Origin: a phage
Direction: 5' to 3' (one strand)
DNA length: 64,000 bases
Sequence record: PZ179882.1
The position numbers and the translations under genes were made by a program. Of this stretch, positions 60,144 to 61,882 are shown one piece after another. The notes under the pieces are model-generated. The model saw only the letters and a program-made list of their open reading frames with translations, ran no database searches and was not told the origin of the DNA. The first letter of the stretch is position 1. Each line of letters opens with the position of its first letter.

Positions 60144-61073
60144 ATGTCAGGATATAATTCTCAGAATCCAAAGGAACTCAAAGATGTCATTCTAAGACGC
60201 TTAGGGGCTCCAATTATCAATGTTGAGTTAACACCCGATCAAATCTACGATTGCATCCAGCGTGCCCTAGAATTATACGGTGAATACCATTTTGATGGAC
60301 TTAACAAAGGTTTTCATGTATTTTATGTAGGAGATGACGAAGAAAAATATAAAACCGGAGTCTTCGATTTAAGAGGTTCAAATGTATTCGCAGTAACTCG
60401 CATTCTCCGCACGAATGTTGGATCAATAACGTCAATGGACGGAAATGCTACATATCCATGGTTTACTGACTTTCTTTTAGGAATGGCTGGTATTAATGGT
60501 GGTATGGGAACTTCTTGTAATAGATTTTATGGACCAAATGCCTTTGGAGCTGATTTAGGATATTTTACCCAGCTTACCAGTTACATGGGAATGATGCAAG
60601 ATATGCTTTCGCCTATTCCAGACTTTTGGTTTAATTCAGCAAATGAACAACTCAAAGTCATGGGAAACTTCCAAAAATATGATTTGATTATCGTAGAAAG
60701 CTGGACTAAATCATATATTGATACCAATAAAATGGTTGGAAATACAGTAGGATACGGAACAGTCGGTCCGCAAGATAGCTGGTCATTATCTGAACGATAT
60801 AATAATCCAGACCATAATTTAGTAGGTCGTGTTGTGGGTCAAGATTCAGATGTTAAGCAAGGTGCTTATAATAATCGTTGGGTGAAAGACTATGCAACAG
60901 CTTTAGCTAAAGAACTGAATGGCCAAATTTTAGCACGTCACCAAGGAATGATGCTTCCTGGCGGTGTTACAATTGATGGACAACGCTTAATAGAAGAAGC
61001 TCGATTAGAAAAAGAAGCATTACGTGAAGAATTATACTTGCTCGATCCTCCGGTGGGAGTGTTAGTTGGATGA
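60144..61073 (+). CDS. 13: Neck protein gp13
   Basis: 309 aa; matches T4 gp13. Confidence 0.9.
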
Positions 61074-61882
61074 ATTATACTAAAATTTACAACTCTCTTA
61101 TAGAAAGATCTCTTAAAAGAGGTCTCAATAAGAAAAAATTAGATTATTATACGGAATCACACCATATTGTCCCAAAATCTATGGGAGGAGATGACTCTAG
61201 AGAAAATAAGGTTTTACTGACAGCAAGAGAACATTATTTTGCGCATGAGCTTCTTTTTAAAATACACCGAAATTCTGAAATGGCTTATGCCTTAATAAAA
61301 TTCTCCAAGGGTACAAAAGAGCAGAGAATTGTAAGTAAAGATTACGGATGGATTAAAGAGGAAACATCCAAAATTAGATCAGAAACCACTAAAAAGTTTT
61401 GGGCAAATCTACCACCAAATTTAAAGAAGGAACGAATTAAAAAAGCTGGAAAAGGTATTAAAAAAACTAAATCTTTATGGGCAGATGAAAAGAGAAAAGA
61501 AGTTAATGCAAATATTCAAAAAGCTTCTGTGAAATATTTGGAATCGCTGTCAGAAAACGAAATGTTAGAATATAAAGAAAGATGTTCTAAACAAATGAAA
61601 GATTTTTGGTCTGAGCTTAAAAGCGACCCCCAAAAATACGAAAAGTATTTAAATAAACTATCTAAGGGTCTTACAAAAGTCGAAAAAAGAAATTGCCCAC
61701 ATTGTGGAATTATATGTGATGTAGGAAATTATGGAAAATACCACGGCGATAAATGCAAAGTTATCACGGGTGTATCTCATAGCAGAGAAAAATTAAAATG
61801 CCCGCATTGTTCTAAAATCATGGATAAGTCTCACGCTAAAAGATACCATTTTGACAATTGCAAATTTAAGAAGGTCGAATAA
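61070..61882 (+). CDS. HNH homing endonuclease inserted between genes 13 and 14
   Basis: 270 aa; [36 protein letters not shown] motif; two C-terminal CPHC zinc knuckles; not in this position in T4. Confidence 0.65.

Follow-up and report, generated by a model that had tools for sequence, protein, structure and literature searches.

A probable free-standing Mob-like HNH homing endonuclease gene between neck genes 13 and 14 of a Tequatrovirus

A stretch of 64,000 nucleotides from the phage sequence record PZ179882.1 was analysed (hereafter the window). According to blastn, the window belongs to a Tequatrovirus and is colinear with T4 from about 33.7 to 96.7 kb. Between gene 13 and gene 14, which encode two neck proteins, the window carries an open reading frame (ORF) of 270 residues. 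We consider it highly probable that this ORF is a free-standing Mob-like HNH homing endonuclease gene, a selfish element inserted between the last sense codon and the stop codon of gene 13. An earlier inspection of the letters, here called the sequence-only reading, had pointed out a 270-residue HNH ORF with two CPHC zinc knuckles at 61070–61882; the ORF, a Pfam HNH_4 match and two CCHC units were found there. The features of the junction, all on the + strand, are as follows.

60144–61073, +: gene 13, neck (head–tail adaptor) protein gp13, 309 residues; ORF with a match to PHROG 211 'head-tail adaptor Ad2' (E = 2.7e-43), colinear with T4 gene 13.
61053–61070, +: recoded last six sense codons of gene 13, GTGGGAGTGTTAGTTGGA versus TTTGGAATTTTGGTAGGT in insert-free genomes.
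61071–61879, +: insertion of 809 bp relative to T4 and other insert-free Tequatroviruses, from junction alignments with T4 and T6.
61070–61882, +: very probable free-standing Mob-like HNH homing endonuclease gene, 270 residues, from PHROG 655 and T4 Mob homology.
61154–61246, +: HNH catalytic core, residues 29–59 (E29, H31, H32, N46, H55, H59; beta-beta-alpha), from Pfam HNH_4, the family alignment and the AlphaFold2 (AF2) model.
61337–61678, +: helical linker region, residues 90–203, five long helices in the AF2 model, poorly conserved in the orthologue alignment.
61688–61861, +: two CCHC zinc knuckles, residues 207–226 and 244–264, from the sequence, the AF2 model and the alignment.
61868–61874, +: AAGAAGG, a purine-rich Shine-Dalgarno-like motif that would serve gene 14.
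61884–62654, +: gene 14, neck (head-closure) protein gp14, 256 residues; Pfam T4_neck-protein match (E = 1.4e-138), aligned with the T4 gene 14 start.

The endonuclease ATG (61070–61072) and the gene 13 stop TGA (61071–61073) share bases as ATGA. At the other end, the endonuclease TAA (61880–61882) is followed by a single T (61883) and then by the gene 14 ATG at 61884. Both ends thus lie where the sequence-only reading had put them, the start over the gp13 stop and the end just before gene 14; the ATG is 2 nt past the last stop base, so that the spacer is 1 nt. The gene 14 frame is open back to TTG 61851, and ATG 61884, the start homologous to that of T4, was used. The corresponding T4 coordinates are 94553 for the last base of gene 13 and 94555 for the first base of gene 14; only 1 nt and no gene separates them, as the sequence-only reading had supposed. 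The label of PHROG 211 is also the one given to T4 gene 13 in the T4 record.

According to the junction alignments, ...GGT|TAATATG of T4 corresponds to ...GGA|TGAATT...GTCGAA|TAATATG of the window. The insertion point is located after the last sense codon of gene 13 and before the original TAA-T-ATG. The new gene 13 stop (TGA) is supplied by the insert, the old gene 13 TAA now ends the endonuclease ORF, and the old 1-nt spacing from the gene 13 stop to gene 14 now serves this ORF. Gene 14 is unaltered from the first base past the insertion. The insert of 809 bp is nearly all ORF (813 bp) and lies between intact frames of gene 13 and gene 14, which indicates a free-standing gene outside any intron, no search for a group I intron having been made. 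The boundaries are nucleotide-exact in the alignments with T4 and T6, and alignment with insert-free T4-family genomes shows the same 809-bp addition with identical boundaries in all carriers examined; the insertion is as precise as had been proposed. Ten genomes have an insert of 809 nt and Shigella phage SHFML-26 has one of 808 nt, and the blastn gap relative to T4 is 810 nt. As a separate observation, the start of the endonuclease gene at 61069–61081 (GATGAATTATACT) resembles a gene 13 stretch 43 nt upstream at 61026–61038 (GAAGAATTATACT), with one mismatch in 13 nt. This near-repeat could be a chance match in A+T-rich DNA or a trace of the first integration.

The protein was assigned to the Mob-like HNH family, which bears out the HNH endonuclease assignment made from the letters. 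Residues 1–267 match PHROG 655 'homing endonuclease' (E = 3.1e-52), and residues 25–52 match Pfam HNH_4 (E = 1.1e-5, 25.7 bits, curated cutoff 22). In tblastn, the five T4 matches are all five Mob loci, the best one with 30.8% identity over residues 1–230; identity to MobB, MobC and MobD of T4 is 32, 22 and 31%, respectively, and the N-terminal 100 residues are conserved and align with these proteins. In an alignment of 80 family sequences, H31, H32, N46, H55 and H59 are invariant. Each CPHC motif continues with H-x3-C, giving the CCHC units C207/C210/H222/C226 and C244/C247/H260/C264, and the four ligands of the second unit are also invariant in this alignment. The AF2 model, built with 80 homologues, has a pLDDT of 91.7. 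Its HNH core consists of strands 29–32 and 47–50 and helix 52–66 (pLDDT > 93), and each CCHC knuckle is a beta-hairpin followed by a helix, modelled with high confidence. The knuckles are presumed to be a sequence-specific DNA-binding module. NUMOD3 (PF07460), which many homologues have in the helical linker region, is absent from the window protein at Pfam E-values up to 0.1. A sequence search against Protein Data Bank chains gave only marginal HNH matches.

The distribution of the gene was examined in GenBank phage records; an IMG/VR scan with gp14 gave only 15 loci, which are too few for population analysis. A megablast query of gene 13, the ORF and gene 14 matched 508 phage records, and the ORF is present at the same site in 47 of them (about 9%) with 95.9–99.3% nucleotide identity. 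Three of the 47 are records of phage T6. The window copy is a distinct allele, closest to that of phage sutha (99.3%). When an artificial junction of 65 nt with the insert deleted was used as the query, an uninterrupted 13/14 junction without any scar was found in 585 phage records of several genera. The ORF is thus far from universal at this site, which was the finding that would have spoken against an insertion. In tblastn, all other homologues in isolate phages are less than 60% identical, and many of those listed adjoin unrelated genes, namely nrdA, the primase gene, the topoisomerase gene and baseplate genes. The 96% cluster in a large protein collection holds 50 member sequences.

Two records were considered separately. 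T4_ev151, which carries the insert, was tried as a laboratory acquisition of the insert by T4 and rejected as not being T4-like at this locus, its genes 10–13 being only 77–83% identical to those of T4; no paper relevant to T4_ev151 was found in the literature. Escherichia phage BYEP02 (OR757454.1) was tried as a remnant of a deleted endonuclease gene and likewise rejected, as it has a T4-type junction with a 78-bp duplication of the gene 14 start. This record (L036 1541–1640) has two tandem copies of the initial 78 bp of the gene 14 region, and its annotation shows the adjoining genes in fragments. The duplication is probably an assembly or sequencing artefact or a tandem duplication.

For the population signature, a small panel of 11 insert-bearing and 12 insert-free Tequatrovirus loci was compared over 919 nt on the gene 13 side of the insertion point and 800 nt on the gene 14 side. 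Seven of the 245 variable flanking sites separate carriers from non-carriers: −18, −16, −12, −10, −7, −4 and −1. All seven lie in the last six codons of gene 13, where the change from TTTGGAATTTTGGTAGGT to GTGGGAGTGTTAGTTGGA replaces F304 with V and I306 with V and is otherwise synonymous. At position −19, G is found in 6 of the 11 carriers and in none of the 12 non-carriers. In this panel of 11 versus 12, no insert-associated site was found from −25 leftward or in gene 14 from +1. In the larger collection, the recoded block is present in all 47 carriers, each matching the block and the ORF start with at most 4 mismatches in 63 nt, and in none of the 585 uninterrupted junctions, the closest of which has exactly 8 mismatches to the recoded version. 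Residues 301–308 of gp13 have a role in the portal-binding arm (PMC12929587), and F304V and I306V of the recoded block fall in this arm.

Among the carriers, the insert has a nucleotide diversity of 0.020, compared with 0.048 for gene 13 and 0.032 for gene 14, and the diversity of the flanks is equal in carriers and non-carriers. Judged from these values, the insert is younger than its flanks. The low diversity of the insert and its lack of linkage to the flanks together indicate recent spread into many backgrounds. Third codon positions hold 29 of the 47 variable sites of the ORF. In SHFML-26 (L035 1501–2312), a 1-nt deletion splits the ORF, which is annotated as two short hypothetical ORFs; vB_EcoM_F1 and vB_EcoM_FN show the same 812-nt match and a split annotation (from the match and the annotation, the sequences themselves not having been read directly). 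By these patterns the insert is under purifying selection, with occasional decayed copies. Taken together, a seemingly functional cassette that spreads recently in many backgrounds and occasionally decays follows the life cycle expected of a homing endonuclease gene.

These population data also bear on the idea that the late neck operon ancestrally contained the ORF as one of its ordinary genes, which T4 and most relatives then lost. Orthologues at the same position in several divergent T4-like lineages, described below, would fit such a history. Against it, the 585 records from several genera have an exact and scarless junction of gene 13 stop and gene 14 start, carriers and non-carriers are interleaved by their flanking polymorphisms, and the insert is younger than its flanks. 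The nuclease family moreover has mobile members in T4, and an unrelated endonuclease gene occupies the same spot in Mosigvirus. We therefore regard this history as very improbable.

Another account starts from a homing origin and holds that the gene no longer homes. It would be kept because its 3' end gives gene 14 its translation signals and its 5' end gives gene 13 its stop, which makes a clean deletion difficult, or because it has been co-opted, for instance to cut the DNA of competing phages (marker exclusion) or to stimulate recombination locally. Its start and stop codons are indeed tied to the two essential genes beside it, and its own sequence contains a Shine-Dalgarno-like motif for gene 14; a parallel is the nrdB promoter inside mobE, which selects against mobE loss (PMC2790892). 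The gene is carried by only about 9% of the records, some copies are frameshifted, and T6 SegB has a side role in amplifying anti-defence loci (PMC13096335). However, an insert less diverse than its flanks and unlinked to them points to recent spread rather than passive vertical retention, the catalytic residues and both zinc knuckles are intact and under purifying selection, and the marker exclusion by T4 endonucleases is homing seen from the loser's side. A gene that has ceased to home is thus unlikely in our view, and a homing endonuclease gene that is still active remains the favoured explanation.

The same junction was then compared in other T4-like lineages. The closest homologues outside Tequatrovirus are on three metagenome contigs (P0002–P0004), with 51–56% identity and the same length. 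Each is directly upstream of a gene 14 homologue, recognised by Pfam T4_neck-protein in two cases and cut by the contig end in the third, and the 3' end of a gene 13 homologue is immediately upstream of each. In the host phages of two of these orthologues, gene 14 has 70–76% nucleotide identity to any reference; that of the third is 95% identical to a Moonvirus-like genome. Among the four 13/14 orthologues, the catalytic domain and the zinc-knuckle region are strongly conserved and the helical middle is not, and a stretch of 15 residues in the knuckle region is identical in all four. All four genes end in a purine-rich, Shine-Dalgarno-like motif ahead of gene 14, with GAGG, GGGG or AAGGAG before their own gene 14 ATG in the orthologues, despite differing C-terminal residues. 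In one contig (SRR33991139_568291, locus L037), a second Mob-like HNH gene is present at 1621–2217 between gene 14 and gene 15 (PHROG 655, E = 1.4e-34, with NUMOD3), and gene 14 there is thus flanked by two endonuclease genes.

In the Moonvirus-like contig (locus L039), the last 13 nt of gene 13 contain 5 synonymous changes relative to three insert-free relatives. By comparison, the rest of gene 13 diverges by about 6.7%, and the initial 50 nt of gene 14 are identical. This locus may be a second, independent case of recoding beside the endonuclease gene.

In Mosigvirus, a gene of another kind occupies the junction. Phage vB_VIPECOMC06 has a gene for a 211-residue Seg-like GIY-YIG endonuclease between genes 13 and 14 (L019 3125–3760), which belongs to PHROG 314, has an I-TevI-type DNA-binding domain and NUMOD3, and represents an unrelated catalytic family. 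This gene is found in 13 records with at least 98.6% identity. Its first residues, MATY, are those of gene 14, whose start is recoded and overlaps with it. Homologues with about 60% identity adjoin neck genes in other genera, one of them being annotated as 'segC' in SP18. According to these loci, the 13/14 junction is apparently a recurrent target of unrelated endonuclease families. Homing elements prefer conserved, essential sequence, and recurrent use of this junction fits that preference.

The Mosigvirus gene resembles the window gene in its junction, its free-standing arrangement on the same strand, its sporadic occurrence and the recoding of the adjoining end of an essential gene. It differs in its catalytic family and in its position, a few codons into gene 14 and not before the gene 13 stop.

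These comparisons led us to a more specific proposal: the recoded block would be the actual cleavage site and at the same time a portable immunity patch, and the junction would be a recurrent landing site of at least two unrelated families across Tevenvirinae, each rewiring the translational coupling of the neck proteins. We put forward this combined proposal tentatively, its chances being somewhat below even. For the 18-nt patch taken singly, the immunity reading stands at roughly even odds. The block may mark and protect the endonuclease target, and on the simplest view the patch would correspond to the sequence that the catalytic domain recognises within the target, changed in the carrier so that no cut is made there; this would match the bipartite model of MobE.

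Several observations weigh against the homing explanation or parts of it, this proposal included. The tight linkage of the block may only reflect that no crossover occurs within 18 nt with 7 mismatches beside 809 bp of heterology, and the block may be a relic of a donor gene 13 or an adaptation that creates a GGGAG ribosome-binding site. The alleles of L037 and L039 keep the upstream CCTCCATTTGG unaltered, and that stretch alone is thus not the discriminating part of the target. The signal of L039 comes from a single insert-bearing contig, in a window chosen after the data had been seen. Free-standing T4 endonucleases often cut tens to hundreds of base pairs away from their own gene. In fold searches of solved structures, no significant match covered the whole protein (I-HmuI included), and similarity to HNH or zinc-finger folds was weak and local.

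The block may accordingly have another meaning within a homing system. It could be a leftover of a donor gene 13 that cannot be recombined away, or a selected GGGAG site; the enzyme would still home, with a target elsewhere or one that spans the junction and is destroyed by the insertion. GGGAG, 10 nt ahead of the ATG, is indeed a feature of the recoded version only, and recombination within 7 mismatches in 18 nt beside a large heterology is mechanically unlikely, which would explain the linkage without selection. The orthologue-bearing alleles of L037 and L039 keep the amino acids PPFGIL. On the other hand, the synonymous cluster of the Moonvirus-like lineage makes no Shine-Dalgarno motif, the endonuclease ATG there being 12 nt further downstream. 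The blocks of the four lineages are mutually dissimilar, which does not agree with a single shared donor relic, and no genus with a gene 13 ending in PPVGVLVG, a possible donor, was found among the 13 surveyed T4-like loci. The same kind of polymorphism at the mapped nick site tells mobE-bearing from mobE-free phages (PMC2790892). We give this alternative appreciable weight, at a level clearly under an even chance.

The expression context was examined next to the junction. On the + strand of 53743–64000, no exact late-promoter box TATAAATA was found. Two boxes with one mismatch, TATAAAGA at 61571 and TTTAAATA at 61648, are inside the ORF and were not counted as evidence. No terminator-like site was found on the + strand inside the insert, and the RNA hairpins at the endonuclease start and the gene 14 start are not beyond chance (z = 0.82 and 0.24). 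With the genes on the same strand, the layout is compatible with the read-through of a late transcript that the sequence-only reading had suggested. The GGGAG motif, which is Shine-Dalgarno-like, is located at 61055–61059, 10 nt before the endonuclease ATG. Before gene 14, AAGAAGG in the last endonuclease codons replaces GGTAGG of T4. Since no exact late box and no internal terminator-like site was found, and the start and stop of the gene are chained to those of its neighbours, it is most likely expressed from the late transcript, with its translation coupled to that of gene 13 and assisted by GGGAG. In T4, mobE is promoterless and co-transcribed with its upstream neighbour, as shown experimentally (PMC2790892).

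Between wac and gene 13, a perfect G+C-rich hairpin without a T run (GGGGCCGCAAGGCCCC) is present at 60116–60131. In Mosigvirus G53, the annotation has a putative terminator at the equivalent site. Expression of genes 13 and 14 and of the endonuclease gene would need read-through of, or processing at, this hairpin.

From these features the following course of events is proposed for the homing endonuclease. The promoterless gene would be read on the late transcript of genes 13 and 14. Its translation would be coupled to the termination of gene 13 through the ATGA overlap, with GGGAG 10 nt upstream, and gene 14 would be initiated 1 nt past the endonuclease stop through the Shine-Dalgarno-like motif in the last endonuclease codons. 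When the phage and an insert-free relative infect the same cell, the C-terminal pair of CCHC knuckles would bind the conserved DNA of the 13/14 junction, and the N-terminal HNH domain would nick or cut the insert-free allele in or beside the last codons of gene 13. Repair by recombination, with the carrier genome as template, would then transfer the gene to the recipient together with the 18-nt patch beside it. Protection of the carrier genome from cutting would come from this patch and perhaps also from the interruption as such. We infer both the target and the cutting mode (nick or double-strand break) from the sequence. Classical homing, as shown genetically for MobE, is the best-supported reading. 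MobE makes a strand-specific nick and its gene is embedded between essential genes, with polymorphisms at the nick site in mobE-bearing phages (PMC2790892).

Comparison with known systems places the gene near the T4 Mob proteins. MobA–MobE share with the window protein a homologous N-terminal HNH domain with the invariant motifs NY..IY, E.HHI.P, GG, N.V.LT and H..AH.LL.KI. The overall identity is only about 30%, and MobB, MobC and MobD lack the two CCHC knuckles that the window protein has C-terminally. The likeness to mobE extends to the arrangement: both are free-standing and promoterless genes that separate two essential genes of linked function and share their strand; an expression signal of the downstream gene, presumed in the case of the window gene, is within the 3' end of the endonuclease gene; and carriers and non-carriers differ by clustered substitutions beside the gene (PMC2790892). 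However, the mobE site is in the early/middle genes nrdA/nrdB, whereas the present site is in the late structural genes 13/14. Further, no internal terminator-like hairpin as in mobE was found in the window gene, and the linked substitutions of mobE are more than 100 bp inside the neighbouring gene, whereas here they abut the insertion point.

I-HmuI, an HNH enzyme that is encoded in an intron of Bacillus phage SPO1 and nicks one strand, likewise has an N-terminal HNH domain joined to a C-terminal DNA-binding domain by a helical linker (see the discussion in PMC2790892). It differs in being intron-encoded and in having a helix-turn-helix; the window gene is not in an intron, its protein has zinc knuckles, and no significant match in sequence or fold was found.

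The gene is already present in public records. T6ORF154 of phage T6 (AXN58195.1) and its counterparts in 46 other Tequatrovirus records have the same site and length and 96–99% identity, and the recoded end of gene 13 is the same save at −19. The gene is labelled 'homing endonuclease' or 'HNH endonuclease', and in T6 records also as hypothetical or as T6ORF154. Petrov et al. (2010) counted three mob-like HNH genes in T6 and did not describe a gene of the window type. No description of the gene was found in the literature, the Edgell 2010 review, Petrov 2010, the paper on the ICP1 nuclease boundary and the 2026 paper on T6 SegB being without it. It thus belongs to a well-known class of mobile phage genes, as a member that is annotated by pipelines and uncharacterised.

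The window differs from T4 at several other places. It is without mobB, mobC and the I-TevII-containing nrdD intron of T4 (at 4127–4152, 8627–8647 and 9923–9926), and the position of mobD (21776–22739) holds two unrelated ORFs on the − strand (21772–22233 and 22236–22757); the endonuclease set is thus strongly unlike that of T4. A 733-nt segment that T4 lacks, located between the homologues of nrdC.9 and nrdC.10, contains a 239-residue ORF (18481–19200, − strand). By eye, the N-terminal sequence of this ORF (IYKTE...KYYYGRH...YVGSG) resembles that of a GIY-YIG Seg-type endonuclease, and there is no Pfam match at E-values up to 0.01. At 38227–38835 (− strand), in the tRNA gene region, a 202-residue ORF has the HNH motif CxxC...HIDGN...N...CPNCH, with a weak Pfam HNH match (E = 0.005) below the cutoff. 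Its segment cannot be aligned to T4 and is near the position of T4 segB, and the ORF is probably another free-standing endonuclease gene. Two further ORFs on the − strand (35360–35923 and 36049–36522), in a 1.2-kb segment absent from T4, start with MKTYAEFLTEA and MKSYTQFLNEA. These starts recall the capsid-targeting sequence of T4 internal proteins, and we presume that the ORFs may encode alternative internal proteins. At 20235–20498 (− strand), an 87-residue DUF4031 protein (Pfam E = 1.1e-21) is encoded; the 493-nt segment that contains its gene lies between the homologues of nrdC.10 and nrdC.11 and is not present in T4.

Free-standing Mob-like endonuclease genes of T-even phages are a textbook class. 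With the class well known and the gene already labelled in public records, including those of T6, the present finding adds little in principle. Its practical value is that the linked 18-nt patch, the very short linkage on both sides, and the orthologues and the unrelated endonuclease at the same junction together give a specific and cheaply testable prediction of the target. The in vitro characterisation of the Mob family has been difficult, and suitable phages for crosses already exist in T6 and T4 or T2. It matters in annotation and in phage engineering that the insert supplies the gene 13 stop and the ribosome-binding context of gene 14, and its careless deletion would therefore be risky. 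If the patch and the recurrent landing site are as proposed, the junction would be a way to define the DNA specificity of a CCHC-knuckle Mob enzyme, and a compact setting in which to study the tolerance of a selfish nuclease within a translationally coupled structural operon. The stoichiometry of the neck proteins matters for assembly.

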